64,000 bases of DNA from Deltaproteobacteria bacterium (lineage in GTDB: Bacteria; Myxococcota; XYA12-FULL-58-9), in contig JACRCV010000075.1 in the NCBI GenBank assembly GCA_016218825.1, forward strand, positions 166,358 through 230,357, given 5' to 3'. Of the stretch, positions 40,819-64,000 are shown piece after piece. The translations under genes were made by a program, and so were the position numbers. The notes under the pieces were generated by a model. That model searched no databases. It had not been told where the DNA came from and saw only the letters and a list, made by a program, of their open reading frames with translations. Numbering within the stretch: the stretch's first letter is position 1; each line of letters opens with the position of its first letter.

Positions 40819-40837
40819 CAGCGGACGCGAAGTGCGT

Positions 40838-41036
40838 CGATGTTGCCCGCCCCACCCGGTCGGGCACCGAGCAGCTGGCTTTGCCCGTGCGAGGTGCGGG
40901 GGCACGGGGGGACGCAGAGCCGGCGCGTCACTCCGTTGTCGCCCTCGGACCACGTGCCGGCGGGCGGTCCCCCCGCCAGGTTGCTGGGGCGCCAAGCGCC
41001 CGCCGGGAATCAAAGAAGCGAGAACCAGTCGATTGC
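40838..41036. repeat. structured GC-rich repeat, copy C (subfamily 1 variant with longer, divergent centre)
   Basis: Shares 5' cgatgttgcccgccccacccgg and 3' gcgcccgccgggaatcaaagaagcgagaaccagtcgattgc with copy A. Confidence 0.55.
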
Positions 41037-41116
41037 TCTGACGCAAAGTGCGATGGAGTATAGCAATCCGCGCCTCTTCGCGGTAAGAGGCCGGATCCGA
41101 AAATCGTTTCCAGGAG

Positions 41117-48145: not shown

Positions 48146-49432
48146 GTGGCATTCTGGCGCAAAAACACATTGAATATCACGGCGATGGCGCTGTTGTCGG
48201 CCTGTGGCGGCGCCGGCGCGGTCATGTCCAGCGTGGCGGAGGACCCGGTCGTCGCGGCTGAGCCTCTCCAGACGCCGAGTGTGCGCCTGGTGTCGCCGCC
48301 GCAGTGGGCGGCAGGGGACGTCGTGACGGTGCTCGGCGCCGGCTTCGTCGATTCCGGGCGCGGCCACACCGAGCTCGCTCTCGACGGCGAGTTCGTCACC
48401 GCCGCGGGCCTGCGCTCGCCGGTGTCGATGACGGTCTCGGAGACCACGTTCCGCAACGCTGGCCGCGTGGAGTTCGTCTTCGAGCCGGCGCTACCGCCCG
48501 CGGGGTTCGGGCACGACCTCGGCACCTTCACCGGCAGCGTGCGGGCCAAGAACGTCGACGACGAGAGCGCCTCGCCGGCGTCGGCGCCGGTGACGGCCGC
48601 GATCGAGGTCGGGCCGTCGCTCATCCTCTGGTCGTTGCTCCCGACCGGGCTCGCCTGCGGCGAGGTGATGCGGGTGCGCGAGGTCCAGGACGGCAGCAAG
48701 ATCGACGTCAACCTCGAGGCCGTCGGCCTGTCGACGCCCACCACCACCGCGCCGCTCGTGGTCACCGCGACCTTCGTGGATCTGGCGAACGCCCCGATCG
48801 AGGTGCAGAAGACCATCGGCAGCGGACGCCGCACCGCGTTGACCCTCGACGTCGGCCGGTTGCCGGACGGCAAGGTCGAGGCCACGCTGCACGTCAACCT
48901 CAGCGTCACCGACGCGGTCGGCGCCGGCGTCGATCGCACCTTCAGCGTCGCCGTCGGCCGGGAGCACAGCGTCGCTTACGACGGCAACGTGCGCGTCGCC
49001 GAGCTCTACGCCCCGGTGCAGGTGAGCTCGTGCTTGCCGGGTGGCGCGACCGGCCGCGACGTCAGCTACTCGTCGGGCACCTCGGAGTCGCGCAGCCGCA
49101 CCATCGGCTTCAGCGTCGACGTCGGCCTCAACATCTGGGTGGTGAACGTCGGCTTCGGGATCAACGTCAGCGACTCGGTGTCGACGACCGAGTGTCAGGA
49201 TCTGTCGCTGAACGGGCACATCAACCCCGGCCAGTTCGGGGTGTTCTACCGCCAGACCCAACGCCTCGAGCGCCTCGGCCAGATCGTGCGCCTCGACAGC
49301 TGTGGCGCGAAGCGCGTCATCGGCGACGCGCGGGTGACCGACTGGTCGTGGGCGCCGGATCTCGCGATCACCACCAACCGTCAGTGTCCTCCCGCACCGC
49401 CGTCCAACCTTCCACCCGCACAGGTGTTCTGA
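48146..49432 (+). CDS. hypothetical lipoprotein, no recognisable domain
   Basis: GTG start. MAFWRKNTLNITAMALLSAC is a lipobox. No clear domain. Confidence 0.6.
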   Translation: MAFWRKNTLNITAMALLSACGGAGAVMSSVAEDPVVAAEPLQTPSVRLVSPPQWAAGDVVTVLGAGFVDSGRGHTELALDGEFVTAAGLRSPVSMTVSETTFRNAGRVEFVFEPALPPAGFGHDLGTFTGSVRAKNVDDESASPASAPVTAAIEVGPSLILWSLLPTGLACGEVMRVREVQDGSKIDVNLEAVGLSTPTTTAPLVVTATFVDLANAPIEVQKTIGSGRRTALTLDVGRLPDGKVEATLHVNLSVTDAVGAGVDRTFSVAVGREHSVAYDGNVRVAELYAPVQVSSCLPGGATGRDVSYSSGTSESRSRTIGFSVDVGLNIWVVNVGFGINVSDSVSTTECQDLSLNGHINPGQFGVFYRQTQRLERLGQIVRLDSCGAKRVIGDARVTDWSWAPDLAITTNRQCPPAPPSNLPPAQVF

Positions 49433-50412
49433 TGCGTAGCCTGGTCACCGCGTGTGCTGTTCTGCTGTCCGCGAGCGCCTGCGGCGAGCTGCCCGACCCG
49501 CCGCTCCCCGACGGCAACCCGGGCGGCCAACCGGCGGCCAACCCCGGCGACCCGCCGCCCCCCGAGGATCCGGCGCTCGATCCGAACGCGCCGCCGCCCG
49601 CGAGCCCGGCGCTCGCGGCGCTGCCGTCGCGTTACGGCTACGACACCATCCCGGTGCGCGGCACCGCGGCGCCGAACGAGACCGTGTTCGCCGAGGGCGG
49701 CAGCGCCCCGGTCGCGACCGACGCCGACGCCGGTGGTCGCTTCTGCCTGGACGTGCCGCTCGCGGCCAAGGCGACCCAGACCGTCGAGGTGTTCGTGCAG
49801 GACCAGCGCGGCGTCACCTCGTCGCCGGCCGCGGTGGTGATCGTGCAGGACCCGACTCTCGCGGTCAGCGAGTCGCCGCCGCGGCCGCAGGTCAACCTCG
49901 CGGCGCGCCTGCCGTTGTCGGCCGACGAGACCCCGAAGGCCGGGGTGTTCGCGAACCTGACCGACGAGGACACCACCTCCAGCGTCACGGTGCCGAGGGC
50001 GATCGTCTGGCTCGACTTCAGCGAGCTCGCCGACATCGAGAGCGTCGAGGTGGTGTTCAGCGACACGCTGACGACCGGCGACAACACCTTCGCGACCGAG
50101 TACCAGGTGCTGGTGAGCGACGTCGCGTCGCCGTCGATGCCGCCGGCGTGGGACAGCCCGGATTGGACGCTGCTCTACGACGTCTATCCCGGCTGCGGTT
50201 TGCCGGCGGGGGACGGCGGCTCGGATCTGTTCGGCCTCGAGACCCCGTGGACCGCCCGCTATGTGGCGTTCTCGTTCATCGAGAACAACAAGACCGACTG
50301 GCTGTCGTCCGAGGAGATCAAAGTGGCGGAGCTCCGCGTCCAAGGCCGCTCCGCCGTACCGCCGCCGCCCCAGCCGCAGACCCCGACCTGCGCCAACGGG
50401 AAGCAACCCTAA
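49432..50412 (+). CDS. lipoprotein with C-terminal F5/8 type C (discoidin)-like domain
   Basis: MRSLVTACAVLLSASAC is a lipobox, followed by a Pro-rich linker. C-terminal ...ARYVAFSFIENNKTDWLSSEEIKVAELRV is discoidin-like. Confidence 0.6.
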   Translation: MRSLVTACAVLLSASACGELPDPPLPDGNPGGQPAANPGDPPPPEDPALDPNAPPPASPALAALPSRYGYDTIPVRGTAAPNETVFAEGGSAPVATDADAGGRFCLDVPLAAKATQTVEVFVQDQRGVTSSPAAVVIVQDPTLAVSESPPRPQVNLAARLPLSADETPKAGVFANLTDEDTTSSVTVPRAIVWLDFSELADIESVEVVFSDTLTTGDNTFATEYQVLVSDVASPSMPPAWDSPDWTLLYDVYPGCGLPAGDGGSDLFGLETPWTARYVAFSFIENNKTDWLSSEEIKVAELRVQGRSAVPPPPQPQTPTCANGKQP

Positions 50413-50419
50413 GGTCAGA

Positions 50420-52192
50420 GTGCCGGTCTGCGTCTTACCCGCTCTAGCGCTCGCTCTCGCCTGGGTAGAGATCGGCGGCGGCCTGCCGGCCGGCGACGAC
50501 ATCACCGCGATGTCGTTCGGCAACGGCGCCGACGACATCCTGGTCGGCACCACCGCCGGCTACGTGTTCCGCACCCTGGACGGTGGTGAGACCTACCAGC
50601 CGATCTTCACGCCGCAAGACACCGAGCCGTTGGTCGAGCCGCGGCTCCACAACCTCGCGAGCGCGGCGGTGGACGACCTCGGTCGCGGTCACGATCGGAA
50701 TATGGATCCGCGGGACCGGGCCGGCAGCGTCAAGGCCGCGGCGAACCTCGCCGGCGAGGTGCGCGACAACCCGCAGATCCGCGCCACGCCGCTGCTCGCG
50801 TCGCTGGTCCGCGAGACCGCCCGCGAGCGCGCCGCGGTGACTCAGATCCAACGCTGCGCGCCCGCGACCTTTCTGCTCACGCCCGAGTCCCTGTGGCGGT
50901 CCACCGATGACGGCCTGCGCTTCGAGCAGCTCAACGTCGGTCCTTCGGGCTTGCGCTCGGCGATCTACTGGATCACCTGCGATCCGGCGCGCAAAGGCCA
51001 CGTGGCGCTGAACACCGCCGCCGGCGTCCTCGAGAGCTTCGACCTCGGCGAGACCTTCTTCATGTTCGGCAGCGCGTTTCCCGACGGCGCCAAGGTCGAC
51101 GGCATCGACTTCCGCGCCGACGGCCGGCTGGTGGTGACGGCGCAGGGGAGGGTGTTCGTCGAGCGCCAGGGGGGCGGCGGCTACGAGGCGGTCTGCAACT
51201 ATCGCCGGGGCGACAGCGTCGAGGGCAAGCTCGACTGGATCTGGTGGACCGAGGGGCGCGGCCGGCCGGTCTTGTACCTCGTGACCGGCGACGGCATCGT
51301 GGTGTGCGACGACGGCAAGCTCAAGCGCCTCGACCCGTTGGGCCTCGGGCGGGTCCAGGCGGAGTTCGTCTGGATCGACGACGCCGAGCCCGGCCACATC
51401 CTCGCGGCGACCAAGCACGAGGTCTACGAGAGCTTCGACGCCGGCGCGTCGTTCAAGCTGGCCTTCGTGGTCCCCACCGAGCGCTCGGTGCGCAAGCTCT
51501 TGATGGACGGCGGGCGCAAGGGGGATCTGCTGGTGGCGACCGGCGGCCAGATCTTTCGCCGGGTCCAGGACGACGATGGCGCCCGCAAGCGGGCGGTCGC
51601 CGGCCGCGAGGCCGCGGTGACCGAGCGGCTGATGAGCGAGGCGCCGTTGTGGCAGGTGTTGCAGACGGCGCTGGCGCGGATGGAGCTGGCGCCGGAGCGG
51701 GTCGCAGAGCGTCGGGTCGATTCGATGTTTCGCAACCTGATGCCGGACATCGCGGTGCGCGCCTCGTACGCGATGAGCGCGTCGCCCAGCCTGCGGACGC
51801 CGAGGTTCGACGCGGGCGCCGACCCGCGATTTCCGCAGTCCGGCGCGCCCGACGACTTCTCCGCCTTTGCCCGGACCCGCGGCGGCGCTGCCTATTGGAG
51901 CGTGGTGGCCGTCTGGGATCTCAGGGAGATCATCGCCGACCGCTATACCTCCGACCGACTCTGGGCCGACGTCGAGCGCCTGCGACAGAAGATGACGTTT
52001 CGGGTGCAAGACGAGTGGGTGGCCTGGGGTCAGGCGTCGGTGAAGCTCAGCCAGGCCGGCCTGTCGCGCCGCGCGCGGCTGTTCCACGAGTTGAAGCGGC
52101 GGGAAGCGGCGGCGATCCTCAACCAGATGACCGGCGGCGGGTTCGCGGTCTTCGCGACCGACGGCGCCGGGCGCACGCGCGCCAGGGAGTAG
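50420..52192 (+). CDS. BNR/Asp-box repeat secreted protein (Ycf48/sialidase-like beta-propeller)
   Basis: Repeats TTAGYVFRTLDGGETY, SLWRSTDDGLRF, and YESFDAGASF. GTG start assumed at 50420. Confidence 0.6.
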   Translation: MPVCVLPALALALAWVEIGGGLPAGDDITAMSFGNGADDILVGTTAGYVFRTLDGGETYQPIFTPQDTEPLVEPRLHNLASAAVDDLGRGHDRNMDPRDRAGSVKAAANLAGEVRDNPQIRATPLLASLVRETARERAAVTQIQRCAPATFLLTPESLWRSTDDGLRFEQLNVGPSGLRSAIYWITCDPARKGHVALNTAAGVLESFDLGETFFMFGSAFPDGAKVDGIDFRADGRLVVTAQGRVFVERQGGGGYEAVCNYRRGDSVEGKLDWIWWTEGRGRPVLYLVTGDGIVVCDDGKLKRLDPLGLGRVQAEFVWIDDAEPGHILAATKHEVYESFDAGASFKLAFVVPTERSVRKLLMDGGRKGDLLVATGGQIFRRVQDDDGARKRAVAGREAAVTERLMSEAPLWQVLQTALARMELAPERVAERRVDSMFRNLMPDIAVRASYAMSASPSLRTPRFDAGADPRFPQSGAPDDFSAFARTRGGAAYWSVVAVWDLREIIADRYTSDRLWADVERLRQKMTFRVQDEWVAWGQASVKLSQAGLSRRARLFHELKRREAAAILNQMTGGGFAVFATDGAGRTRARE

Positions 52193-52198
52193 GGACCC

Positions 52199-52807
52199 AT
52201 GATGATGTTGTCGTTGTCGTTGTCGCTGTGGCTGTGCGTCTCCGGCGCCGGTGAGGCCGACGCGGAGGTGGCGGAGGCGCTGCGGCTGCTCGCCGAGGAC
52301 CCGCCGATCGCCGACGTCCAGCGGGCGGCGCTCGAGCACTTCTCGGTGTCGCACGACGACCTGTCGTCCTATCGCGCCGCGGCCCGGCTGCGGGCGCTGT
52401 TGCCGTCCCTGACCGGCGGCTACTTGCAGGGCGACAACAAGCTGCGGCGCTCGTCGGCGGACCAGGCGGCGGGCTTCTCCTACGACCCCAACAACCCGCA
52501 AGTGACCGACAACACCAACGGCGTGGATCGAGCGTTCACCGCCGCCGCGACCTGGTCTCTGGGGAGCCTGGTGTTCGACGCCAATCAGATCGAGACCTAC
52601 TCGCTCGTCGGCATTCAGCAGGATCTGCTGACCGAGGTGACGCGGCTGTACTACACGCGGCAACACAACGTGCTGGCGCTGGCGCTGGAGCCGCCGCGCG
52701 ACCCGCGCGCCAGGGCGGCGTTGATGCTGCGCAGCCGCGAGATCGAGGCGATGCTCGACGCCCTGACCGGCGGCGCGTGGAGCAAGCTGCGCCGCAAGGG
52801 GCGCTGA
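52199..52807 (+). CDS. hypothetical secreted protein
   Basis: MMMLSLSLSLWLCVSGAGEA is a signal. No recognisable domain. Confidence 0.5.
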   Translation: MMMLSLSLSLWLCVSGAGEADAEVAEALRLLAEDPPIADVQRAALEHFSVSHDDLSSYRAAARLRALLPSLTGGYLQGDNKLRRSSADQAAGFSYDPNNPQVTDNTNGVDRAFTAAATWSLGSLVFDANQIETYSLVGIQQDLLTEVTRLYYTRQHNVLALALEPPRDPRARAALMLRSREIEAMLDALTGGAWSKLRRKGR

Positions 52808-52823: not shown

Positions 52824-54518
52824 ATGGCGCAGGCGTTCGCGACCATCATCGAGGCGTTCCTGGCGCACGCGCGGGCGCGGCCGGAGGCGTCGTTCGCGAC
52901 CTTCATCGGCAGCAGCCCGCCGGACGTGACCTGGACCTTCGGGCAGGCGCTGGAGCAGGCGCGACGCGCCGCCGGGGGTCTGGTCGCCGAAGGGCTCGGC
53001 GCAGGCGATCGGGTGGTGATCGTCGGCGGCAACGAGCCCGCGGTCGCCGCGGTGCTGCTCGGGGCGATGGGGCGCGGCATGGTCCCGGCGGTCGTCCACC
53101 CGCCGATCCGGGCCGAGGCCAAGGCGGCGGCGACCTACCTCGAGAACATCGTCGTCAAGGCCGAGCCGGCGTTGGTGGTGGTGGCGTCGGCGGAGATTGC
53201 CGCGAGCGTCGGCGGTGGACGGCGGCTTCGCACCGCGGCGGAGCTGCTCACGAGCGCGGCGCCGCCCGTCGAGCTGCAGCCGCCCGCGGAATCGGCTCCG
53301 GCCTATATCCAGTTCTCGTCCGGCAGCACCGGCGCCGCCAAGGCGGTGCTGCTGTGCGCCGGCGCGCAGGCGCAAAACGCCTACGCCACCGGGGTCGAGA
53401 TCCGGGCGCAAGACGACGAGACCTGGGTCATCTGGTTGCCGCTCTACCACGACATGGGGTTGATGTCGGGCCTGCTCATCCCGTTGTTCCTGGGGCACCG
53501 CACCGTGCTGCTCGCCCCGGAGCGCTTCGTCGAGCGGCCGGTGGCCTGGCTGCAGGCGATCGACCTGCACCGCGGCACGCTCACCGTGGCGCCGAACTTC
53601 GCCTACGCGCTGGTCGCCAGGCGCGCGAGCCCGGAGCGCCTGGCCGGCCTCGACTTGTCGTGCCTGCGGGTGGCGTTCAACGGCGCCGAGATGGTGCTCG
53701 CCGACACCGTGGCGCGCTTCGAGGCGGCGCTGGCGCCGGTGGGGTTGCGACCGGACACGGTGTTCCCGGTGTACGGCCTCGCCGAGTTCACGCTGAGCGC
53801 CTGCTACTGGGACGTCGGCAGGCCGATCCTCGTGGACCACGTCGCCCGGGGCGATCTGGCCCGGGGCTACGCGGCGCCGGCGCTCGAGAATGATCGCCGT
53901 GCGACGAGCTTCGTCAGCGTCGGCCACCCGGTCGCCGGACATCGGCTGCGGGTCGTCGACGATCGGGGTCAGGAGTGCCAGGAGCGCGAGGTGGGGGAGA
54001 TCCAGCTCGCGGGGCGGTCGCGGATGCTCGGCTACGTGGGCGATCCGGCGCTGAGCGCGGCGACGATGGCGGGCGAGTGGTTGCTGACCGGAGACCTCGG
54101 CTACGTCGCGGCCGGTCAGGTGTTCGTCTGCGGCCGCAAGAAGGACCTGGTGATCCGCTTCGGCGAGAACTTCTACCCCGCGGATCTCGAGAGCGTCGCG
54201 GCGACCGCGCCGGGGGTGCGCGCCGGCAGGCTCGCGGTGCTCGGGGTCGCCGACTTGCGGCTCGCGACCGAGAGGGTGTGGTTGGTGATCGAGGCCGAGC
54301 TTGAGCCCGCCGCCGCCTACGAGCTCGCGGCCGCGGTGCGCGCCTTCGTCCTCGAGGCCGCCGGCTTCAAGTTCGACGGCATAAGCGTCGTGCCGCCGGG
54401 CTTCATCGACAAGACCTCGAGCGGCAAGGTGCGGCGCTACGCGGTGCGCGACAAGCTGCTCGTCCTCTTCGGCCGCGGCACGCCGCCGCCGTCGGTGGGA
54501 CGGTTCCCCGAGCCGTGA
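52824..54518 (+). CDS. fatty-acyl-AMP ligase (FAAL-type AMP-binding enzyme)
   Basis: YIQFSSGSTGAAK is the AMP-binding motif I. FAAL-like YGLAEFT, GEWLLTGDLGYV, and GRKKDLVI. Confidence 0.85.
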   Translation: MAQAFATIIEAFLAHARARPEASFATFIGSSPPDVTWTFGQALEQARRAAGGLVAEGLGAGDRVVIVGGNEPAVAAVLLGAMGRGMVPAVVHPPIRAEAKAAATYLENIVVKAEPALVVVASAEIAASVGGGRRLRTAAELLTSAAPPVELQPPAESAPAYIQFSSGSTGAAKAVLLCAGAQAQNAYATGVEIRAQDDETWVIWLPLYHDMGLMSGLLIPLFLGHRTVLLAPERFVERPVAWLQAIDLHRGTLTVAPNFAYALVARRASPERLAGLDLSCLRVAFNGAEMVLADTVARFEAALAPVGLRPDTVFPVYGLAEFTLSACYWDVGRPILVDHVARGDLARGYAAPALENDRRATSFVSVGHPVAGHRLRVVDDRGQECQEREVGEIQLAGRSRMLGYVGDPALSAATMAGEWLLTGDLGYVAAGQVFVCGRKKDLVIRFGENFYPADLESVAATAPGVRAGRLAVLGVADLRLATERVWLVIEAELEPAAAYELAAAVRAFVLEAAGFKFDGISVVPPGFIDKTSSGKVRRYAVRDKLLVLFGRGTPPPSVGRFPEP

Positions 54519-54566
54519 CGCCCGGCCTTTACACTTGGGGTCCGGTCCCCATACGGTGCCCGGCCC

Positions 54567-55502
54567 GTGGCTGACCAACTCTACCTCTGGCCCGAAGACC
54601 AACAAGGCGATCGCCTGACGTGGTCGTGGTCCAAGGACCGGCGCCTGAAGGACTGCCTGCGGCGTTACTATCTGCACCACTACGTCAGCCGCGGCGGCGC
54701 CAGCGCCGGCGCCCAGCCGCTGACCCGGGAAGCGTACCTGCTGAAGAACCTGCGCAACCGCCACATGTGGGTCGGCGAGGTGGTCCACGAGATGATCGAG
54801 CTCGGGCTCGGGGCGCTGCGGCGCGGCGAGCAGGCGAGCCCGGCGGCGCTGGTGGAGCGGGGCACGCGGCGGATGCGGGCGCAGTACGCCGAGTCGCTCC
54901 AGGGGGTCTACCGCGAGCGGCCGCTGCACGCCTGCGGGCTGATGGAGCACGAGTACCGCGAAGAGGTGCCGAAAGAGGAGTGGAAGCGGCAGCGAGATCG
55001 CATGGAGCGCTGCGTGCGCGCGTTCTTCGAGCTCGAGCTGGTCGCGAAGCTCGAGGGCTCGCCGCCCTGGCGCTGGCTGGCGCTCGAGAACCTGACGAGC
55101 TTCGATCTGGACGGCGCGACGGTGCTCGTCAAACCCGACCTGGCGTGGCGGGACCACGACGACACCGTGGTCCTCGTCGACTGGAAGACCGGCAAGGCGC
55201 GCCCCGACGACGAGGAGCGCCAGCTCGCGGTGTACGGCCTGTTCGCGCGCCGCTCCTGGGTCGGCGGCGGCGGCGGCTTGCGCGGCGTCGTCGCCCACCT
55301 CGACGACGGCGGGGTGTCGGAGACCAACCTCGACGACATGGCGCTGGCGCGGGCCGAAGCCTCGATCCGCAGCTCTCTGGCGACGATGCGGGCGTTGCAC
55401 CCCGAGGCCGCGGGGCCCGAGCTCCGCCTCGATCGCTTCCCGGTCACCGCGGACGCCGGCTTCTGCGTGCACTGCGCCTTCAAACGGCTCTGCGATCGCT
55501 GA
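54567..55502 (+). CDS. Cas4-like RecB-family PD-(D/E)xK nuclease with Fe-S Cys motif
   Basis: GTG start. VLVKPDLAWRDHDDTVVLVDWKTGK has the D...D-W-K nuclease motif. QLAVYGLF is the QxxxY motif. N-terminal Cys (HACG) plus C-terminal CVHCAFKRLC (C-x2-C-x5-C). Confidence 0.75.
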   Translation: MADQLYLWPEDQQGDRLTWSWSKDRRLKDCLRRYYLHHYVSRGGASAGAQPLTREAYLLKNLRNRHMWVGEVVHEMIELGLGALRRGEQASPAALVERGTRRMRAQYAESLQGVYRERPLHACGLMEHEYREEVPKEEWKRQRDRMERCVRAFFELELVAKLEGSPPWRWLALENLTSFDLDGATVLVKPDLAWRDHDDTVVLVDWKTGKARPDDEERQLAVYGLFARRSWVGGGGGLRGVVAHLDDGGVSETNLDDMALARAEASIRSSLATMRALHPEAAGPELRLDRFPVTADAGFCVHCAFKRLCDR

Positions 55503-55508
55503 CGGCGG

Positions 55509-55552
55509 CGGGGCGGGCAACATCGGTCCAACTCGAGAGCTCGATCGCCTTG
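55509..55552. repeat. repeat fragment, copy D (44-bp 5'-terminal piece of subfamily 1, inverted; possible internally deleted element 55487-55552)
   Basis: The reverse complement caaggcgatcgagctctcgagttggaccgatgttgcccgcccc matches the first 44 bp of copy A with one mismatch. Confidence 0.6.
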
Positions 55553-55619
55553 GGCGGTGGGAAGGATCGACTTGCCGGGTCGGCGCCTGCTTGCTACACC
55601 CCGATGCGGAGGAGCGGCG

Positions 55620-58019
55620 ATGCCTCGGTCGACGACGATCGGCGTGGCCGTCCTGCTCCTGGCGCTGATTGGCTGCCAGGACAGCGGCGGCTGCGGCACC
55701 GACTACAACTATCCGCGCACCGATCCGGCGGCGGCGCCGAGCTTGCGGGCGCTGCGGCTGCGCGTCACCCAGACCGGGCTCGACTCGATCGCGCGCGCCT
55801 TCCCCGGCCTCGTCGCCAGCGCCTGCGCCGCGAATGTCGACGACGGCACCGCCCCCTGCGCGCTCCTGGCGCCCGGCTCCGACCGGGTGAAGTTCTACCT
55901 CGGCACGACCGCCGCGCCCCTCGCCTTCGACTTGTCGCTCACCCGTGGCCAGGTGCGGCCGCAAAGCACCGTGACCATCGACACCCAGAGCCTGCGCGGC
56001 AACGTGCACCTGAGCCTGGTGAACGTCGTCGGCGGCCGCGACGGCATCCAGGTGACGCTCGGCTGCAACGCGCCAAACTTCGCCAGCTGCACCAACCCCA
56101 GCGCCTTCGTCGACGCCGCGGTCGACATGGTGGTGTTCGTCGAGGGCTTCTCGCTCTTGGTGACGAGCTACAACGACAGCGCCTGCTTCGTGCAGGACGA
56201 CGCGCCGCCGGCGCCCGGGATCGTCATCCAACAGCTGCGCTTCACGATCTATCCGCACGTCGACGCCGGCGCCGACGGCAAGCCGTACCTGATCCTCGAC
56301 GATCAGGACGTGATCGTCGATCGCATGGAGGTGAGCCTCGACGTCCAGGCCGGCAGGGCGTGCTGGGACCCGGTGTGCAACGCCTGCGGCGCGGGCGGCG
56401 ACTGCGACCTGTGCGATGACCTGAGCGTCCTGACCTCGTACGTCATCGAGCCGCTCATCGAGACCGGCCCGGTCGCGAAGTATCTGTCGGCGGTGATCGC
56501 GAGGCAGCTGGTGAAGAAGTTCGCGGACCAGCCGCTCGAGGTGACCGGCGCCATCAACGTCGGCGAGCGCCTGAACGTCGCGAACAACGCCGCCCACGAC
56601 ACCGGCTACCTGATCGGCGCCAACGTCGATTCTCCCGACGTCACCGGGGGGGCGGGCGACCTGGGGATGAACTTCGACTTCGACACCGGCTTCGCGGCGC
56701 GCCACAGCCCGTGCGTGCCGGCCCTGGAGCCGCCGGCGTGGCTGTTGCCGGCGACCCCGGACCCGGGCGGGACGGTGATGGCGCCGGATCCGACGACCGG
56801 GGTGCTGCGGCCCGAGCCTTTTGACCTGGCGCTGATCGCCGGTGACGTGGTCGCGAACCGCGCGACCTTCGAGCTCTTCGACGCCGGCAGCTTCTGCTTC
56901 CACCTCCAGGCCGAGGAGGTCGCCGGCCTGTCGAACGGCAGCTTCGTGCCGACCGTCGGCGCGGTCAGCGTGGTCGCGCCCGGGTTGGCGTCCCTCGCCC
57001 CCGTGGACGCGCCGGTCACCCTCGGCACGCAGCCGTACATGCCGACCTTCGTGAGCTTCGGCACCGGCGACGGCGAGGGCCCGGCCCGCGACAGTCACCT
57101 GCGCGTCGTCTGGCCGCAGTTCACCCTCGAGATCATGCCGCTGGTCGACGACGCCTTCATCCGCGCCTTGGCGATGACCAGCGACTTCGAGATCGGCTTG
57201 AGCCTGGAGCCGACGCCGACCGGCGATCTGCAGATCATGATCGACAACATCGCGCTCAACAACCTCTCGGCCTCGTACAACGAGATCCCGATCCAGTTCG
57301 ACGTCGACGGCGTCGGGCGCCTGGTCGAGGCGTTGGTGCCGCGCCTCTTGAACGGCGATCCCTTCAACGTCCCGCTCACCGCGACGACGCTCGGGTTCCC
57401 GTTCGTGCCCAAGGTGCGGGCGGTGACCGCGCTCGATCTGCAGAAGCGCTTCCTCGGGGTCTTCATCCGCTTCTGCTCCGACGAGGACCTCCACGACGCC
57501 GCGAACCCCCTGTGCTTCGACCCGGCGGCCGGTGCCGGGCGCGCGCCGAGCGCCAGGCGTCTCGAGCTGCAGCGGCTGCCCCTCGGCAGCCCGGGCCGCG
57601 CCGACGCCGTCGGCGTCCGCGCGCTCGCCAACGCCTGGGATCCGGCGGCGCTGCAGATCGCCTACCGGGTCGACGGCAAGGGGCCGTTCTTCGGGTTTCG
57701 GGGGCCGCGCGCCGACGGCGTGTTCGTCGTCACGCATCCGGCACTGGCGGCGCCCGGCTGGCACGAGATCGAGGCGATCGGCCGATCGCGGCAGCTGAAG
57801 AATCAATGGACCGAGCCGACGACCCTCGCGGTCCTCGTGGACGACGCCTCGACCCCATCGCCCCCGGCGGTGGCGCCGAGCGTCGCCGCCCCGGTCCCGT
57901 CGTCGCCGCCGTACGGCGACGGTTGCCGGGCGGTGCCGACGGGGGGGCTCTGCCTCGTTCTGTTGGCGTCGCTGTGGACCTTCGCCGGCGCTCGACAAAG
58001 CGCCCGGCATCGTCGATAA
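55620..58019 (+). CDS. large lipoprotein of unknown function with C-terminal MYXO-CTERM sorting signal
   Basis: ATG 55620 with GGAGGAG Shine-Dalgarno. MPRSTTIGVAVLLLALIGC is a lipobox. C-terminal ...GCRAVPTGGLCLVLLASLWTFAGARQSARHRR follows the MYXO-CTERM pattern. Confidence 0.75.
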   Translation: MPRSTTIGVAVLLLALIGCQDSGGCGTDYNYPRTDPAAAPSLRALRLRVTQTGLDSIARAFPGLVASACAANVDDGTAPCALLAPGSDRVKFYLGTTAAPLAFDLSLTRGQVRPQSTVTIDTQSLRGNVHLSLVNVVGGRDGIQVTLGCNAPNFASCTNPSAFVDAAVDMVVFVEGFSLLVTSYNDSACFVQDDAPPAPGIVIQQLRFTIYPHVDAGADGKPYLILDDQDVIVDRMEVSLDVQAGRACWDPVCNACGAGGDCDLCDDLSVLTSYVIEPLIETGPVAKYLSAVIARQLVKKFADQPLEVTGAINVGERLNVANNAAHDTGYLIGANVDSPDVTGGAGDLGMNFDFDTGFAARHSPCVPALEPPAWLLPATPDPGGTVMAPDPTTGVLRPEPFDLALIAGDVVANRATFELFDAGSFCFHLQAEEVAGLSNGSFVPTVGAVSVVAPGLASLAPVDAPVTLGTQPYMPTFVSFGTGDGEGPARDSHLRVVWPQFTLEIMPLVDDAFIRALAMTSDFEIGLSLEPTPTGDLQIMIDNIALNNLSASYNEIPIQFDVDGVGRLVEALVPRLLNGDPFNVPLTATTLGFPFVPKVRAVTALDLQKRFLGVFIRFCSDEDLHDAANPLCFDPAAGAGRAPSARRLELQRLPLGSPGRADAVGVRALANAWDPAALQIAYRVDGKGPFFGFRGPRADGVFVVTHPALAAPGWHEIEAIGRSRQLKNQWTEPTTLAVLVDDASTPSPPAVAPSVAAPVPSSPPYGDGCRAVPTGGLCLVLLASLWTFAGARQSARHRR

Positions 58020-58027
58020 CTCCCATC

Positions 58028-60313
58028 ATGCCCCGGCTCTCGCGGATCCCACGGCCGACGATGCGCGGCCGCCGCTGGCGACACCTGCGCCTGGTGTTGG
58101 TCCTGCTGCCGCAGGTCGCCTGCAGCGGGCAGACCGGGTGCCTGGGCTGCGGCGGCTCCTATGACTACCCGAGCCCGCCGCCGGCCGCCGGGGAGATCCA
58201 GAACAACACCCTGCTCGGACACGTGCAGCAGAGCGGCGTGCTCTTCGTGGCGCGCCACCTCGCCGATGTCCTGCGGGCGCGGCTCCCGACCCGGACCGTC
58301 GGCGGCATCGAGCGCGCCACCTTCTACCTGCCGGAGACCACCTACAGGTCGACGCTCGCCGACGTGACCCTCCGTGACGGCTGCATCGGACCGACGCCCA
58401 TCGAACAGTGCCCCAACCTCAACCCCGACGACGGCGACACCACGCGCGGGCCGACCTATCGCTCGATGATCGAGCTGAACCTCGACACCATCGACGACAC
58501 CATCGACGCCACCTTCATCCCCGGCTCCGGGTCGACGCCCGACGGGGTGCGCATCAGCCTCTACAACGTCGACGTCTTCATGGATCTGGCGATCCTGGCG
58601 CAGGGGCTCGCGGTGCCGGGCGACGCCGCCTGCCACATCCAGGACAAGTACAACGACCGCGCCGCGTTCCACCTCGAGCGGTTGCGCTTCACGGTGACGC
58701 TCGCGGTCGACGCCCAGAGCCGTTTTCAGGGCGACGTCGTCGACGTCGAGGTGCTGATCGACCGCGACTCGTTCATCAACAGCGACATGTTGAGCCTCGA
58801 CGTCTCGCCGTGCAACGGCGGCGTCTGCAACGATCCGACCTGCCACGACTCGTGGCTCAACTGGGACTGCAGCGTGAACTGCGCGGTCGGCGGCTTCGTC
58901 TTCGGCGCCGCGGACTTCCTCGCCGGCGTCCTCGAGCCGCTCATCGAGTGGATCGCCCCCTCGGTGGTCGAGCTGGCGATGGGCATGGCCCTCGACCAGG
59001 TGAACGGCCAGCCGCTGATGATGTCGGGGCGCTACGGCTTCGACGAGATCTTCGGCGCCAACGGGCGCCTGGCGCCGCTGCTCATGGACCCCACCGCGAT
59101 CAGCTTCGGCGCCTGGCCGAACGACGACGCCTTCGTGGTCAGCGGGCCGATCGACGCCCGCGGCATGCGGCTGGCGCTCGACGCCGGCACCTTCGCCGAC
59201 CCGAGCCAGTGCGCGCCGATGGTGGTACTGCCGCGGTTCGCGGCGCAGCTCGGCCCACCGCCGTTCTTCGACGGCACCTTGCAGGTGAACGGTCACACCG
59301 AGGCCTACGACTTCGCGGTGTCGGTGTCGGAGGCGTTCGCGGCGCAGGCGGCCTTCAGCGCCTACACGCTCGGGGGCATGTGCCTGTTCCTGTCCACCGA
59401 CGAGCTCGCACGCCTGTCGAACGGCGCGGTCAGCCTCGCGACCTTGGCGCTCTTGGTGCCGTCGCTCGTCGACTGGGCGAGCCCGCACGCCCCGGTGATG
59501 TTCATCGTCCATCCGACGGCGGCGCCCAAGGTCCGCTTCGGCACCGGGGCGACCACCGGCCACGATCCGGACGGCGCGCCGATCATCGACTCGCTGTTGC
59601 AGATCGACTTCGGCGAGATGGGCGTCTCGATCTACACCCTGGTGGACGACGAGCTCACCCGCCTGGCGACGGTGGCGGCGGACGTGAAGCTCGGGGCGCC
59701 GCTCAACCGCACGCCGCAGAACACCATCGAGATCGGCATCGACAAGCTCGAGGTCGCGAACGTCGTCGAGGTCTACGACGAGTTGTTGCCGGCGTCCGAC
59801 TGGGGCTCGCTGTTGGAGGTGCTGTTGAACGTCGCGATCGGCGCGATGATCGACGGCATGGGGAGCTTCAACCTCGACCTGGCGCCGATCGTGTCGCGCA
59901 TGCTCGGCGGCGCGCCGGTCTACGCCCGCATCAACGCGGTGGAGCGGGCCGGCGCCGATGTCGACAAGGGCTTCGTCGTCGCCTACCTGACCCTGTGTGA
60001 CGCCGCGGATCTGACGAACCCGGCGAAGCCGCCGTGCTACACCGCGCCGATCCCGACGGCGCTCGGCGCGGTGCGCCTCGTCGGCGCGGCTCGCGGCGCG
60101 GTGCGCTTCGCGGTCGAGCGGACGCGGGAGTACCAGGTGCGGGTGGACGGCGGCGCCTGGACCGGGTTCCGGGGCGCCGTGGACGGCGAGGTCCGATTCG
60201 GGTCGCCGCTGTTGCGTCTCCCCGGGGACCATCAGGTCGAGCTGCGCGGGCGCAGCGTCGGCCGCTACCAGACCCTCGGCCCGGCGACGGCGTTTGCGGT
60301 CCCTGTCGATTGA
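58028..60313 (+). CDS. large lipoprotein, tandem paralog of 55620..58019 (no MYXO-CTERM)
   Basis: Shared blocks: GCG.SY.YP, LRFT..L.VDA, .C..L...E.A.LSNG. Signal ...MRGRRWRHLRLVLVLLPQVAC. An alternative start is at 58061. Confidence 0.75.
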   Translation: MPRLSRIPRPTMRGRRWRHLRLVLVLLPQVACSGQTGCLGCGGSYDYPSPPPAAGEIQNNTLLGHVQQSGVLFVARHLADVLRARLPTRTVGGIERATFYLPETTYRSTLADVTLRDGCIGPTPIEQCPNLNPDDGDTTRGPTYRSMIELNLDTIDDTIDATFIPGSGSTPDGVRISLYNVDVFMDLAILAQGLAVPGDAACHIQDKYNDRAAFHLERLRFTVTLAVDAQSRFQGDVVDVEVLIDRDSFINSDMLSLDVSPCNGGVCNDPTCHDSWLNWDCSVNCAVGGFVFGAADFLAGVLEPLIEWIAPSVVELAMGMALDQVNGQPLMMSGRYGFDEIFGANGRLAPLLMDPTAISFGAWPNDDAFVVSGPIDARGMRLALDAGTFADPSQCAPMVVLPRFAAQLGPPPFFDGTLQVNGHTEAYDFAVSVSEAFAAQAAFSAYTLGGMCLFLSTDELARLSNGAVSLATLALLVPSLVDWASPHAPVMFIVHPTAAPKVRFGTGATTGHDPDGAPIIDSLLQIDFGEMGVSIYTLVDDELTRLATVAADVKLGAPLNRTPQNTIEIGIDKLEVANVVEVYDELLPASDWGSLLEVLLNVAIGAMIDGMGSFNLDLAPIVSRMLGGAPVYARINAVERAGADVDKGFVVAYLTLCDAADLTNPAKPPCYTAPIPTALGAVRLVGAARGAVRFAVERTREYQVRVDGGAWTGFRGAVDGEVRFGSPLLRLPGDHQVELRGRSVGRYQTLGPATAFAVPVD

Positions 60314-60369
60314 CATCGGGCCCGAAGCCGCGCCACAAGTTACTCGGCCGCAACATTCACCGATCGGGG

Positions 60370-61323
60370 ATGAACATGTCACGCTTGCTCGCTGTCGCCG
60401 CCGTTGTCGCCGCGCTCTCGGGCGGGGCGTGTGGGGGCTCGCCGCCGCCGCCGCCGGTCGTCGCCTCGAAGCCGGAGCAGACCGTCAAGGCGGTGCCGCC
60501 GCCCAAGATCGCGTTGGTGCTCGGGGGCGGCGGGGCGCGGGGCTTCGCGCACGTCGGCGTGCTGCGGGCGCTCGAGCACGAGAAGATCCCGTTGTCGCTC
60601 GTGGTCGGCACCTCGGTCGGCAGCCTGATCGGCGCGCTCTACGCCGCCGACCCGAACACCTTCGAGCTGGAGTGGAAGTCCTTCAAGATCGAAAAGGACG
60701 ACCTCTTCGACTTCTCGTTGTTCGCCGCCACCACCGGCCCGGTGAAGGGGGACGCGGTGCGCAAGTTCGTGGCCGAGAACGTCAAGGAGCAGCAGATCGA
60801 GCGCTTCAAGGTGCCCTACGTCGCGGTCGCCGCCGACCTCAACACCGGCGAGCGGGTCCTCTTCAAGTCCGGGAGCATCGTCGACGCGGTGCGCGCCTCG
60901 GTGTCGATCCCCGGCGTCTTCACCCCGGTGCGCATCGGCAACCGGACGCTGGTCGACGGCGGCGTGGTCGCCAACCTCGCGATCGACGTCGCCCGCGACC
61001 AAGGCGCCGACATCGTGATCGCCTCGAACATCACCCAGCGGGTCGTGGACTACGAGGTCAACGACGTGGTGTCGATCATCATGCAGTCGATCAACATCAT
61101 GATGGGGGAGATGGCCAAGTTTCAGCAGAAGGCGGCCGACGTCGTCATCACCCCCGACATCGGTGACGTCGGGACCATGGACTTCACGCAGAAGAAGCGC
61201 TGCATGCAGGCCGGGATCGCCGCGGTCGAGGCCGAGCGGGGCGCGATCAGCGCGGCCATCCGCAAGTACTACACCGATCGGGGCGGGGAGCCGCCGGCGG
61301 GCGGCCTGCCGTCCATTCGGTGA
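60370..61323 (+). CDS. patatin-like phospholipase lipoprotein
   Basis: MNMSRLLAVAAVVAALSGGAC is a lipobox. Patatin motifs GGGARG...GTSVGS (GxSxG) and catalytic DGG. Confidence 0.85.
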   Translation: MNMSRLLAVAAVVAALSGGACGGSPPPPPVVASKPEQTVKAVPPPKIALVLGGGGARGFAHVGVLRALEHEKIPLSLVVGTSVGSLIGALYAADPNTFELEWKSFKIEKDDLFDFSLFAATTGPVKGDAVRKFVAENVKEQQIERFKVPYVAVAADLNTGERVLFKSGSIVDAVRASVSIPGVFTPVRIGNRTLVDGGVVANLAIDVARDQGADIVIASNITQRVVDYEVNDVVSIIMQSINIMMGEMAKFQQKAADVVITPDIGDVGTMDFTQKKRCMQAGIAAVEAERGAISAAIRKYYTDRGGEPPAGGLPSIR

Positions 61324-61368
61324 CGCCGATTGACCTGCAAACCCCGCGGGTGAGATAAGGCGCGTCAG

Positions 61369-63009
61369 ATGAAGCTCACCCCCTGGTCAAGGCGATCGAG
61401 TTCTCGAGTTGGACCGATGTTGCCCGCCCCACCCGGGGGCGGGCCGAGAGCGGCGCCGCAGGCGACGCTCCGGGGTGGGGGTGGGGAGGACGGGCGCGAA
61501 GCGCCCGCCGGGAATCAAAGAAGCGAGAGCGCGATTGCCCTGACCCCCTGGTGCCGGCTCCTTGCCATCGTTGCGCTGTCGATCGGCGGCTGTGCCCGCG
61601 AGCTCCCGGGCGACACGCCGCCGGGCAAGGCGTTCTACTACCCGGTCAGCGTCACGGTGGCGCCGAACGGCCTCCATGCCTACGTCGTCAGCTCGAACTT
61701 CGACCTGCACTACAGCTCGGGCTGGGTCTCGGTCGTGAGCCTCGAGAGCCTCTTGGACGGCTTGCCCATCGAGACCACGGTGGTCTCCGAGGCGAAGGTG
61801 CTGTCGCTCGCGGGCGGGCTGAGCCTGTCGCGAAGCGGCACGATGGCGGTCACCGCGCACCGCGGCGCCGCGGCGCTGTCGCTGCTCGAGATCGGTGACG
61901 ACGGCAAGACGATCGGCTGCGGCGTCCAGGGCGACACCACGGATCTCAGCTACAAGGAGCGGCTCACCGACTGCGATCGCGCCCACATGCTGCAGACCGC
62001 GTGCACCGCGCCGCAGCTCGAGGACGCCGATCGGCCCGCCGGCTGTCCCTGGGAGCAAGACGGCGGACGTCGGGTGTTCGGGACGTCGCTCAACGATCTC
62101 GAGCTCGCCGACCCGTTCGCGACCGCGATCTTCGAGGTGCCGGCGGCGAGCGGCGGCACCGAGCCGTTGCTCGCGGTTTCCCACTTGACCAGTGGCGACC
62201 CGTCCGTCGGCCAGACCAACCAGCTGCTGCTCTTCGACGTCGAGTCCGGCACGACGGCGGGCGAGTCGGTCGTCTTGGCGCCGCGGCACGCGGTGCGGCT
62301 GGGAGGTGGCGGCAACCTGGGTGTCGCCGCGCTCGCGGTGCGCTCCGACGCTGCCGGCACGTTCCTCGCCGCTGCCACCCAAAAGGCCTTCACCGGCGAG
62401 TCGCAGGATCCGAGCGCGGTCTACGTCGTCGACGTGACCAGGACGCTTTCCGACCAGCAGGACCGGGTGTCATCCCATTCAATCAATGCCGAGGTCGGCG
62501 GTGTGAACCTGGCCGGGATCACCTTCGCCGCGAACAACCCCGACCTGGCGTTCGTGACCAACCGTATTCCCGACAGCGTCGTGACCTTGGACACGTCGAT
62601 CGAGACCGTCGACGAGCGCGACTCGCTCGGGACCGTGACGGTCGCGCGTCGGCCGCGCTTCGCGGTGCTCTCGGCGCAGGCCTTGCAGCCGCGTCCGGCG
62701 GGGCTGCTCTACGTCACCCGGGCGGCGGGGGAGGATCTGCTGGCGGTCGCGAGCTTCGCCGACAACGTGGTCTACCTGTTCTCGGTGCATGGGAGCGAGC
62801 TGCGCCCGACCGGGCGCCTGCCGGTGCCGGGGTACGGCCCGTTCGCTCTCGCGCACGTCGCCCGCGACGGCAGCGACTTCCTGCTGGTGACGACGTTCTT
62901 CACCCATGCGCTGGTGGTCTTCGACGTCACCGGCGACGACGCCGCGCGGTTCCGGTACGTGACCGAGCTCCGGTCGGGCGTGCCGCCGGCCGGCGATCCG
63001 GCGCGGTAG
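61369..63009 (+). CDS. YVTN-type beta-propeller lipoprotein whose signal-peptide coding region carries an in-frame repeat insertion
   Basis: ORF track. Codons 1-6 read MKLTPW. The 152-bp element plus duplication (165 bp, in frame) follows, then ...LTPWCRLLAIVALSIGGC lipobox. Downstream are YVTN-like 40-residue repeats. Confidence 0.6.
   Translation: MKLTPWSRRSSSRVGPMLPAPPGGGPRAAPQATLRGGGGEDGREAPAGNQRSESAIALTPWCRLLAIVALSIGGCARELPGDTPPGKAFYYPVSVTVAPNGLHAYVVSSNFDLHYSSGWVSVVSLESLLDGLPIETTVVSEAKVLSLAGGLSLSRSGTMAVTAHRGAAALSLLEIGDDGKTIGCGVQGDTTDLSYKERLTDCDRAHMLQTACTAPQLEDADRPAGCPWEQDGGRRVFGTSLNDLELADPFATAIFEVPAASGGTEPLLAVSHLTSGDPSVGQTNQLLLFDVESGTTAGESVVLAPRHAVRLGGGGNLGVAALAVRSDAAGTFLAAATQKAFTGESQDPSAVYVVDVTRTLSDQQDRVSSHSINAEVGGVNLAGITFAANNPDLAFVTNRIPDSVVTLDTSIETVDERDSLGTVTVARRPRFAVLSAQALQPRPAGLLYVTRAAGEDLLAVASFADNVVYLFSVHGSELRPTGRLPVPGYGPFALAHVARDGSDFLLVTTFFTHALVVFDVTGDDAARFRYVTELRSGVPPAGDPAR
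61388..61539. repeat. structured GC-rich repeat, copy A (subfamily 1, reference copy), flanked by 13-bp direct repeats ctCaccccctggt (61375-61387) and ctGaccccctggt (61540-61552)
   Basis: Termini caaggcgatcgag ... gcgcgattgcc form imperfect terminal inverted repeats (GGCRATCG). Hairpin gcccgcccc-acccg-ggggcgggc. G-tract ggggtgggggtggggagg at 61473-61490. Confidence 0.75.
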
Positions 63010-63025: not shown

Positions 63026-64000
63026 ATGCGACCCACCGCTCTCAGGTTGTCTTGCATGCTCGTGCTCTCGGCCCTCGGTGGCTGCAGCCAGACGACCACG
63101 ACGACGACGTCCAGCTTCCAGACCCCGATGGGGCTCGCGGTCGCGGCCGCTCCGATCGAGGGTGGCGGGTACGAGTACCGCCGCCTGTTCGTCTCGAACT
63201 TCACCGAGGACAGCCTGCAGGTCCTGGAGCTCGGTGACACGCTCGCCGACGTGGAGCTCTTGTACGGCCCGAACAACTACTTTCCGCTGCGGATCCCGGC
63301 GGGCGCCGGGCCCGGGGATCTGGCCGCCACCAGCGACGGTCGCTTCGTCGTGGTGCTGGATCTGATCACCGAGAGCGTGCGCTTGGTGGACGCGAAGGCG
63401 CTCACGCTGGTGCGCGACGCCGCCGGCGGCATCCTCGAGCTGCCTCTCGGGGGTGGCGGCGCGCGACCGACGTCTCTCATCGCCGCGCCGGTCTGCGTTG
63501 CCGGCGGCGGCTGCAAGGGCGTCTGCGGCACGGGGTGCGAGGCGGGACTCCTCGGCCGCTTCTACGTCAGCATGCCCGGGAGCGCGTCGATCCTGGCCTT
63601 CGACGTGGTCAAGGACGGGGCGGCCGGCAACACGCCGCCGGTGGTCCTCAAACCGTCGCGGATCTACGACGTCGGCGGCGAGCCGACCGACCTCGCGGTG
63701 GACCGGGCCGGGACGCTGGTGTTCGCCTCGGACTCGGCGGCGATGCAGGTGCTGCGCCTGGACTTGGCGTCGGGCCTCGTGGATCGCCGCGACGTCGGTG
63801 GCGCGCCGGGCCCGCTCGCGGTCACCCCGGACGGGACCCTGCTCTTGGTCGGCCGGCCCGAGTGGAGCGACCTGGTGGTGTTCGACGACGCCTCCGGGAG
63901 CCGCTTCGCGCCCTTGGACGCCAACCCCGCGTACACGCCGCTGCCGCAGTGCTTATCCGCGTGTGCCGCCACCGACCCCGCGGTCTGCGACGGCGCTCAT
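63026..64000 (+). CDS. YVTN-type beta-propeller lipoprotein (3' partial; open to window end)
   Basis: ATG 63026. MRPTALRLSCMLVLSALGGC is a lipobox. YVTN-like repeats follow. No stop before 64000, so it is absent from the ORF track. Confidence 0.6.
   Translation, partial: MRPTALRLSCMLVLSALGGCSQTTTTTTSSFQTPMGLAVAAAPIEGGGYEYRRLFVSNFTEDSLQVLELGDTLADVELLYGPNNYFPLRIPAGAGPGDLAATSDGRFVVVLDLITESVRLVDAKALTLVRDAAGGILELPLGGGGARPTSLIAAPVCVAGGGCKGVCGTGCEAGLLGRFYVSMPGSASILAFDVVKDGAAGNTPPVVLKPSRIYDVGGEPTDLAVDRAGTLVFASDSAAMQVLRLDLASGLVDRRDVGGAPGPLAVTPDGTLLLVGRPEWSDLVVFDDASGSRFAPLDANPAYTPLPQCLSACAATDPAVCDGAH

Follow-up and report, generated by a model that had tools for sequence, protein, structure and literature searches.

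TULIP domains carry lipids within a hydrophobic tube, as in BPI, CETP, Takeout and SMP proteins. Bacterial BPI-like proteins with two such domains have been characterised only recently, TipA in 2025–26 and the P47 and OrfX proteins somewhat earlier. TipA of Bdellovibrio bacteriovorus, the one BPI-like double-TULIP protein of bacteria that has been characterised, contains lipids, binds and destabilises bilayers, and has a beta-sandwich adaptor as its partner (bioRxiv 10.1101/2025.09.09.675085; see also PMC6791001). Its authors also describe structural homologues to which beta-rich domains are fused (bioRxiv 10.1101/2025.09.09.675085). The stretch analysed here (64,000 nt of contig JACRCV010000075.1, Deltaproteobacteria bacterium; hereafter the window) ends in a block of genes that had been taken for an accessory region: a predicted fatty acyl-AMP ligase (FAAL), a Cas4/AddB-type nuclease, two large paralogous lipoproteins (big1 and big2), a patatin-like lipoprotein, and two further lipoproteins, prop1 and prop2 (Table 1). 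Structural modelling predicts a BPI/CETP-like double-TULIP fold for big1, and gene order in relatives places the block in the core chromosome.

The product of big1 is identical to NCBI protein HY903_15310 and aligns with that of big2 over its full length at 27% identity (E=5e-41), in keeping with the initial annotation of the two as giant paralogous lipoproteins. Neither protein, nor any of six long members of their family, matches a Pfam or NCBIfam model, LBP_BPI_CETP included; the pair has no PADLOC match, and profile searches of PDB sequences returned nothing below E=0.1. A word-index search that found five relatives had made big1 look like a near-orphan, a picture overturned by an exhaustive profile search (50%-identity clusters), in which the family numbered 876 clusters (E<=1e-3), 185 of them with E<=1e-30. 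Members are called "hypothetical protein" wherever they are named, and come mostly from metagenome-assembled genomes (MAGs) of Myxococcota or Deltaproteobacteria. Many of them (P0053, P0057, P0094 and others) are 1300–1560 residues long, with extra regions that have no Pfam matches.

Modelling of the giant paralogues by AlphaFold had been suggested at the outset and was carried out for big1. A six-sequence alignment gave an unusable model (predicted local distance difference test, pLDDT, 51), and an alignment of 92 sequences was adopted, from which a confident model was obtained (pLDDT 88.8; predicted template modelling score, pTM, 0.86). In the model, two tandem, helix-wrapped barrels of highly curved beta-sheet stand back to back and can be superposed on BPI/CETP, and a C-terminal FN3-like beta-sandwich is added to them. 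Two independent structure searches with this model agreed. Human BPI was matched at 5e-16 (probability 1.0) in one and scored 13.8 over 395 aligned residues in the other, followed by CETP (3e-13; 12.6). Clostridium botulinum P47 (3.6e-6; 7.3) and Takeout (4e-4; 10.4) were also returned by both searches, and OrfX1–OrfX3 (7.9e-6), JHBP (9.4) and Der f 7 (8.4) by one search each. From the model, big1 is predicted to have a BPI/CETP-like double-TULIP architecture and a beta-sandwich at its C-terminus, and big2, by its homology to big1, probably shares this architecture.

Both proteins appear to be anchored at the cell envelope. The lipobox of big1 is LIGC, and that of big2 is QVAC, which is atypical at position -3 (both by inspection). 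Orthologues of big1 end in a Gly-Cys pair, a hydrophobic segment and an Arg-rich tail, a sorting tail that big2 lacks. The tail of orthologue P0004 passes the TIGR03382 model (17.6 bits; cut-off 15.85) and that of orthologue P0002, at 16.6 bits, falls short of the TIGR03901 cut-off (20); the tail of big1 in the window aligns with both and has the same layout, GC...hydrophobic...RHRR. Six cysteines outside the lipobox (C189, C253, C262, C265, C365 and C426) are nearly invariant among 92 family members, which would fit an oxidising, extracytoplasmic location. Such a location is suggested jointly by the lipoboxes, the conserved cysteines and the MYXO-CTERM matches of the orthologues. The tandem pair is kept in the window, in a Joint Genome Institute (JGI) contig, and at the related loci L002, L003 and L007. 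Because big1 and big2 of L007 are closer to their window orthologues (32–33% identity) than to the paralogue (24%), the duplication that gave rise to the pair is old.

Reading frames traced by G+C content at third codon positions (GC3), together with translations, resolve the block into a single plus-strand gene run with spacers of 16–117 nt, and every gene listed in the initial annotation is present on that strand. An alignment-based search for related loci returned three genome loci and no metagenome loci; relatives carry Myxococcota labels. The JGI contig, with a big1 that is 57% identical to that of the window, reads 478-residue gene (cut by the contig end)–nuclease–big1–big2–patatin–487-residue gene–784-residue gene–rpsP–KH. 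Locus L002 (big1 56% identical) has the four genes found upstream of the block, then nuclease–big1–big2, with no FAAL between the 202-residue gene and the nuclease, and L004 (47%) has FAAL–nuclease–big1. At lower identities, with reversed genes marked (-), the orders are nuclease–Metallophos(-)–FadB–big1–big2 in L003 (41%), FadB–big1–PPDK–prop1–prop2 in L006 (36%), and NUDIX–hydantoinase(-)–Hydrolase_4(-)–TAtT(-)–PKD(-)–nuclease–FadB–big1–big2–prop1–prop2 in L007 (33%). Two loci have no big gene: L009 reads PKD(-)–CstA–nuclease–PPDK–prop1–prop2–rpsP–KH–rimM–trmD–rplS, and L008 reads upstream four-gene module...nuclease–three reversed genes–prop1–prop2–rpsP–KH–rimM–trmD. A backbone of PKD(-)...nuclease...prop1–prop2–rpsP–KH–rimM–trmD runs through distant Myxococcota MAGs. 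The slot between the nuclease and prop1 is variable: it can hold PPDK, or big1/big2, which patatin or FadB may accompany. Since the gene order of the block is conserved in relatives at 47–57% identity, the block is core chromosome of an uncultured Myxococcota lineage and not an island. Most of its genes encode envelope proteins, and it lies upstream of the site at which relatives have the rpsP–rimM–trmD operon. It is a mosaic of a conserved backbone (nuclease, prop1 and prop2) and a slot whose content depends on lineage. In the proposed check across relatives, the conserved order at 47–57% identity refutes an accessory region by the condition set beforehand; variation of slot content at deeper divergence is the one point in favour of that view.

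The patatin-like protein has all three expected motifs intact, GGGGARG (GGGxRG), GTSVG (GxSxG) and DGG, and its signal peptide ends in LSGGAC, with the lipobox GGAC (by inspection). Its match to the NCBIfam RssA model (2.4e-41) is below the cut-off. The protein is predicted to be an RssA-like phospholipase lipoprotein, and its initial description as a patatin-like phospholipase lipoprotein stands on the Pfam match, the three motifs and the lipoprotein signal peptide. The gene adjoins the big genes in the window and in the JGI contig and is absent from L006 and L007.

The product of the first gene of the block is predicted to be a fatty acyl-AMP ligase by its closeness to characterised FAALs. 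Its best PDB relatives are all fatty acyl-AMP ligases (3pbk at 6.5e-65, 7r7e, 3kxw, and FadD23/32/28), and it aligns with the Escherichia coli FAAL 3pbk over its full length without a large gap across residues 330–380, the segment which we take to hold the FAAL-specific insertion. The top NCBIfam matches are FAAL subfamily models, below their trusted cut-offs. The protein has no signal peptide, which places it in the cytoplasm. Its gene is the patchiest of the block, being 59% identical (partial) in L004 and absent from L002, L003, L007, L008 and L009. The suggestion that this enzyme acylates the neighbouring secreted lipoproteins finds no support, as it is cytoplasmic and variably present, and the block contains no carrier-protein or acyltransferase partner.

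Enzymes of fatty-acid metabolism are found close to the big genes in several loci. FadB lies directly upstream of big1 in L003, L006 and L007, with zero gap in L003, and the FAAL lies one gene from big1 in the window and in L004. A distant family member of 1003 residues was found in locus L010 (5004–13518), beside rpsP–KH–rimM–trmD, and its flanking genes encode a two-domain PLD protein, a PAP2 lipid phosphatase and an alpha/beta-hydrolase (Hydrolase_4). Proximity to rpsP and the company of lipid enzymes are both found again, independently, in L010.

The reading we favour, with some reserve, is that the slot encodes a lipid-binding and lipid-transfer module of the envelope or cell surface that cooperates with a phospholipase. 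The patatin phospholipase would attack phospholipids, either of the cell's own envelope or of a neighbouring or prey cell, and the TULIP tubes of big1 and big2 would bind lipids or the products and shuttle them between membranes. Big1 would be tagged for display at the cell surface by its MYXO-CTERM-type tail, and the cytoplasmic fatty-acid enzymes that recur beside the big genes (the FAAL in the window and FadB in relatives) could process imported acyl chains. The nuclease would be independent of the module, as a housekeeping enzyme of the DNA-repair type. Lipid homeostasis of the cell's own envelope, lipid scavenging and membrane attack on other cells cannot be separated as purposes of such a module. 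A more specific arrangement, put forward only tentatively, is that the doubly anchored big1 and the singly anchored big2 form a head-to-head, heteromeric tube of four TULIP domains that serves as a lipid conduit to another membrane and harvests or exchanges phospholipids together with patatin. The tube would resemble the TipA dimer or the endoplasmic reticulum–mitochondria encounter structure (ERMES), and the far membrane might be the cell's own inner membrane, or that of a kin or prey cell. If this were true, an unannotated family of ~900 clusters would be a Myxococcota-wide counterpart of BPI/CETP.

Several observations weigh against a lipid-handling module. Its neighbourhood links are loose: PPDK can fill the same slot, prop1 and prop2 occur without big genes in L008 and L009, and a distant family member in locus L011 has no lipid genes nearby. 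The fold of big2 is extrapolated across 27% identity from big1, the one protein modelled, and the tail of big1 in the window matches no MYXO-CTERM model. That the genes are transcribed together is an assumption from their close spacing only; scans for promoters and terminators were at or below chance level and uninformative.

The same structural matches (BPI, P47 and OrfX) could instead indicate that big1 and big2 are offensive, membrane-permeabilising predation factors, BPI-like or OrfX/P47-like, with patatin as their lytic partner; many Myxococcota are predators, and big1 orthologues carry a putative tag for surface display. TipA, moreover, destabilises bilayers (bioRxiv 10.1101/2025.09.09.675085). 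Predation is nevertheless a doubtful explanation here, as no observation tells attack from transport, and the housekeeping surroundings of the genes, in which FadB is often an operon partner, fit the use of lipids better than killing. It is more improbable still that big1 and big2 serve as adhesins or as structural components of the surface and that their resemblance to TULIP proteins is incidental, the block being pure synteny without a shared function. The FN3-like C-terminal domain would suit such a role, and housekeeping genes can fill the same slot, but several independent lineages have lipid enzymes next to members of the family.

The nuclease contains the complete set of Cas4/AddB-type motifs, which, with the PDDEXK_1 match, bears out its initial assignment as a Cas4-type PD-(D/E)xK nuclease and shows four cluster-type cysteines. 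The cysteines are C30 and C300-x2-C303-x5-C309, and the catalytic motifs are D191, D205-W-K207 and Q219-x3-Y223; all of these, and also H74 and E127, are invariant among 39 homologues. Searches returned 72 homologues (E<=0.001), ~60 of them at 42–68% identity and mostly from Myxococcota MAGs, and some carry a precomputed PF01930 match. No solved structure among PDB sequences is similar. In one N-terminal cysteine with a C-terminal CxxCx5C, and in its D..(D/E)xK and QxxxY motifs, the protein resembles the Cas4 and AddB iron-sulfur nucleases; it differs from them in that its gene stands alone, with no partner adjacent, and keeps a constant place on the chromosome within one clade. Among the window genes scanned, no Cas1, Cas2, RecBCD, AddA/RecB helicase or prokaryotic Argonaute (pAgo) adjoins it, which agrees with the earlier remark that no Cas1, Cas2 or RecBCD partner is nearby; no cas genes were found in the window or in six related loci, where no dedicated scan for CRISPR arrays was run. 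Because the nuclease occupies the same chromosomal position with the big genes or, as in L008 and L009, without them, it is not tied to the lipoproteins. It belongs to the conserved backbone and is not a partner of big1 and big2, and it has the look of a housekeeping enzyme shared by the whole lineage, not of a defence singleton.

An accessory, mobile-prone island with a defence or repair singleton (the nuclease, possibly with patatin as effector) is a very unlikely description of the block. It would draw on the content of the slot, which differs among distant relatives, on the presence of two miniature inverted-repeat transposable element (MITE) copies, and on PADLOC, in which the nuclease matches the model of an Argonaute-associated Cas4-like nuclease (Aga_Cas4-like_Nuc; 2.6e-24) and, less well, Cas4 (0.0056), and patatin matches phospholipase-effector models (4e-11). 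These PADLOC matches are generic domain matches, however, and the search, which had been recommended, brought to light no pAgo, Cas or cyclic-oligonucleotide-based antiphage signalling system (CBASS) component in the window. Gene order is kept locally in the JGI contig, L002 and L004, and the nuclease holds its backbone position in genomes without big1, big2 and patatin. Patatin bears a lipoprotein signal peptide, unlike cytoplasmic defence effectors. No CBASS cyclase, Cas1/2, integrase or transposase was found among the window genes scanned, the annotation of which was not exhaustive. The window has ~71% G+C throughout, and the block is flat at 0.70–0.72, the same as its flanks, which are of housekeeping type; the single tRNA gene of the window lies 22 kb from the block. 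What had been described as an island with an orphan Cas4 is corrected to core chromosome with a housekeeping nuclease.

The repeats are MITEs, probably incidental insertions of a genome-wide family, and their initial description as MITE-like is supported by terminal inverted repeats and target-site duplications. A 43-nt core at 55510–55552 (+) recurs at 61388–61430 (-) with one mismatch (0/100 shuffles matched), so that copies A and B are inverted relative to each other, and is part of a 155-nt element that a sensitive search located four times in the window. In full copies the terminal inverted repeats are imperfect and ~11–12 nt long, CA(A/G)GGC(G/A)ATCG (read from the alignment), target duplications in the family are 9–10 bp long, and the duplications of copies B and C are each spaced by exactly 165 nt. 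A density of four copies per 64 kb predicts ~0.6 for the 10-kb block, and the presence of two was judged to be no notable enrichment, contrary to their earlier reading as a sign of a mobile-prone region. Like other MITEs, the elements are small and non-coding, have terminal inverted repeats and target duplications, and occur in several, mostly intergenic copies; they differ in that only two of the four are neither partial nor rearranged and that one lies in frame within a coding region. A 20-nt core of the element has no match in GTDB representative genomes or JGI metagenome contigs. A known RNA was also considered and rejected, as Rfam models run on 47–64 kb gave only a chance snoRNA (E=0.45).

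Copy A leaves the C-terminus of the nuclease the same as in orthologues, and the spacer between the nuclease and big1 is 117 nt in the window, with copy A, versus 68 nt in L002, without it. Downstream of copy A, a motif upstream of big1, CTTGCCGGG...(9–11 nt)...TTGCTACA, is common to the window and L002 (4898–4930) and may be a promoter or operator; a sigma-54 promoter was set aside because the GG-GC spacing is one off (by eye). Copy B was inserted in frame after codon 6 of prop1, adding 165 nt in total, and the signal peptide of prop1 as it stands is longer by 55 residues, inserted in the n-region. Excision of the copy in silico restores MKLTPWCRLLAIVALSIGGCAREL, a short lipoprotein signal peptide as in four orthologues, and the case is a small curiosity on the tolerance of such elements. 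Copy C lies at or inside the 5′-end of an open reading frame (ORF) for a protein like CCA-adding enzyme/poly(A) polymerase (...VGGAVRDVMLG), is open in frame, and may be a second in-frame coding insertion, the start codon being uncertain. Copy D (40825–41052) lies in the divergent spacer between an RNase E/G gene (-) and a TPR_21/YfgM-like gene (+).

Logan contig L001 (SRR12113407; the same sample, independently assembled) is 5895 nt long and spans exactly big1–big2–patatin; both of its ends lie inside the inverted MITE copies, and the orientation of the segment was left unresolved by that assembly. That copies A and B turn the 5.8-kb big1–big2–patatin segment into a composite mobile or invertible unit, with phase variation as its outcome, is scarcely credible: the copies are inverted and stand exactly at both borders of the variable slot, and the Logan assembly breaks at both to leave the three genes only, but a contig break is expected here, as de Bruijn assembly is interrupted wherever a repeat exceeds k. 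Copy A, moreover, is a fragment of 55 nt that retains a single end, and copy B is flanked by a 10-bp target duplication of its own and hence inserted alone. In L002, big1 and big2 occupy the same place although copy A is absent, the window yielded no recombinase gene, and the orientation in the MAG is that of all relatives.

The two genes that close the block encode lipoproteins, with the lipoboxes IGGC in prop1 (copy B excised) and LGGC in prop2 (by inspection). The lipoprotein part of their annotation as YVTN beta-propeller lipoproteins holds by their signal peptides, and the beta-propeller part is only weakly supported. Both window proteins are sub-threshold on propeller models. The prop2 orthologue of L009 passes the Pfam Lactonase model with 34.8 bits. 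On propeller models prop1 and its orthologues stay at <=17 bits, and a prop1 profile found nothing in the PDB. Orthologues of prop1 precede prop2 in L006, L007, L008, L009 and the JGI contig, and those of prop2, 713–798 residues long, are followed by rpsP–KH–rimM–trmD.

Upstream of the block, the four genes for secreted proteins occur in the same order in L002 (47–62% identical) and L008 (28–53%). They are not at the equivalent position in L007 and represent a second movable module on the backbone. Further upstream, UvrD, NUDIX, Hydrolase_4(-) and PKD(-) genes match the backbone of L007, and the remaining genes of the window are housekeeping in kind (RNase E/G, BamB, Dus, MnmA, arginase and sugar transferases). 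A polysaccharide-biosynthesis cluster, which comprises a GT4 glycosyltransferase, two Bac_transf sugar transferases and a DegT aminotransferase, has the lowest G+C of the window (0.66–0.69 versus ~0.71) and looks more accessory than the block that was flagged. A tRNA-Arg(CCT) predicted by ARAGORN overlaps the 3′-end of the opposite-strand Dus ORF, and one of the two calls probably needs trimming.

Table 1. Positions of genes, repeats and other features in the window, in order along the sequence. Strands are given where reported; TSD, target-site duplication.
Feature	Position	Strand	Description
Polysaccharide-biosynthesis cluster	18800-25400		Lowest G+C of the window
tRNA-Arg(CCT)	30431-30509		ARAGORN
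Dus ORF	30466-31527		Opposite strand to the tRNA
MITE copy C	~32135-32290		Full length; 9-bp TSD GGCCACGAC at 32126 and 32291
MITE copy D	~40838-41040		Without first module, longer middle; flanked by ACGCGAAGTGCG and ACGCAAAGTGCG
Gene, 428 residues	48146-49432	+	Secreted, upstream module (48146-52807); from GC3 frames
Gene, ~325 residues	~49.4 kb-50412	+	Secreted; orthologues discoidin/Big_6-like
Gene, ~590 residues	~50420-52192	+	Secreted; weak BNR/Sortilin and F510_1955 matches
Gene, 202 residues	52199-52807	+	Secreted, last of the upstream four
FAAL (predicted)	52824-54518	+	Pfam AMP-binding, 2.8e-53
PD-(D/E)xK nuclease	54567-55502	+	PDDEXK_1, 3.6e-16, 60 bits
MITE copy A	55507-55561	+	~55-nt fragment in the nuclease-big1 spacer; one terminal repeat and module 1; begins after the nuclease stop codon
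Motif upstream of big1	55570-55600		Shared with L002
big1, 799 residues	55620-58019	+	Lipobox, double-TULIP model, FN3-like domain, C-terminal tail
big2, 750 residues	58061-60313	+	Paralogue of big1
Patatin lipoprotein	60370-61323	+	Pfam Patatin, 7.9e-36, 124.5 bits
prop1 lipoprotein	61369-63009	+	Weak beta-propeller signal
MITE copy B	61388-61542	-	Full length, 155 nt, inside prop1; 10-bp TSD ACCCCCTGGT at 61378-61387 and 61543-61552
prop2 lipoprotein	63026-64000	+	Lactonase/YncE-type beta-propeller signal, weak; cut by the window end

Among described proteins, the BPI/LBP/CETP/PLTP group (1bp1, 1ewf and 2obd) is the closest in predicted fold, at only 11–13% identity to big1 in structural alignments. 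Big1 and big2 differ from BPI and CETP in a length greater by ~300 residues, in insertions and an added FN3 domain, and in being bacterial and lipid-anchored through a lipobox, to which big1 adds a MYXO-CTERM-type tail. The match of big1 to C. botulinum P47 and OrfX1–3 is much weaker than that to BPI and CETP, and those proteins belong to toxin clusters of Firmicutes and have no lipid anchors. TipA and TipB could be compared by their published description, TipA not being among the PDB matches of big1. The likenesses are a bacterial double-TULIP protein in a Gram-negative of the former Deltaproteobacteria, a presumed operonal organisation, and a beta-sandwich partner, which in big1 would be fused as the C-terminal FN3-like domain. 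TipA is a homodimer with a small adaptor, whereas here there are two paralogous TULIP proteins, with lipoprotein and putative MYXO-CTERM anchoring and a patatin neighbour.

The FAAL, the Cas4/AddB-like nuclease, patatin, the MITE and the BPI-like double-TULIP fold itself are all of kinds already known. What is new is the model-based fold assignment for a sizeable Myxococcota family that has no Pfam or NCBIfam model, and a recurrent, lipid-anchored architecture of tandem pairs that includes a MYXO-CTERM-type tail and an FN3 domain. The assignment is useful and testable, and will not surprise the specialist, as bacterial double-TULIPs are already documented. Typically an ancient tandem pair, and often near phospholipases or fatty-acid enzymes, the family is a testable candidate for the movement of lipids at the myxobacterial cell surface.

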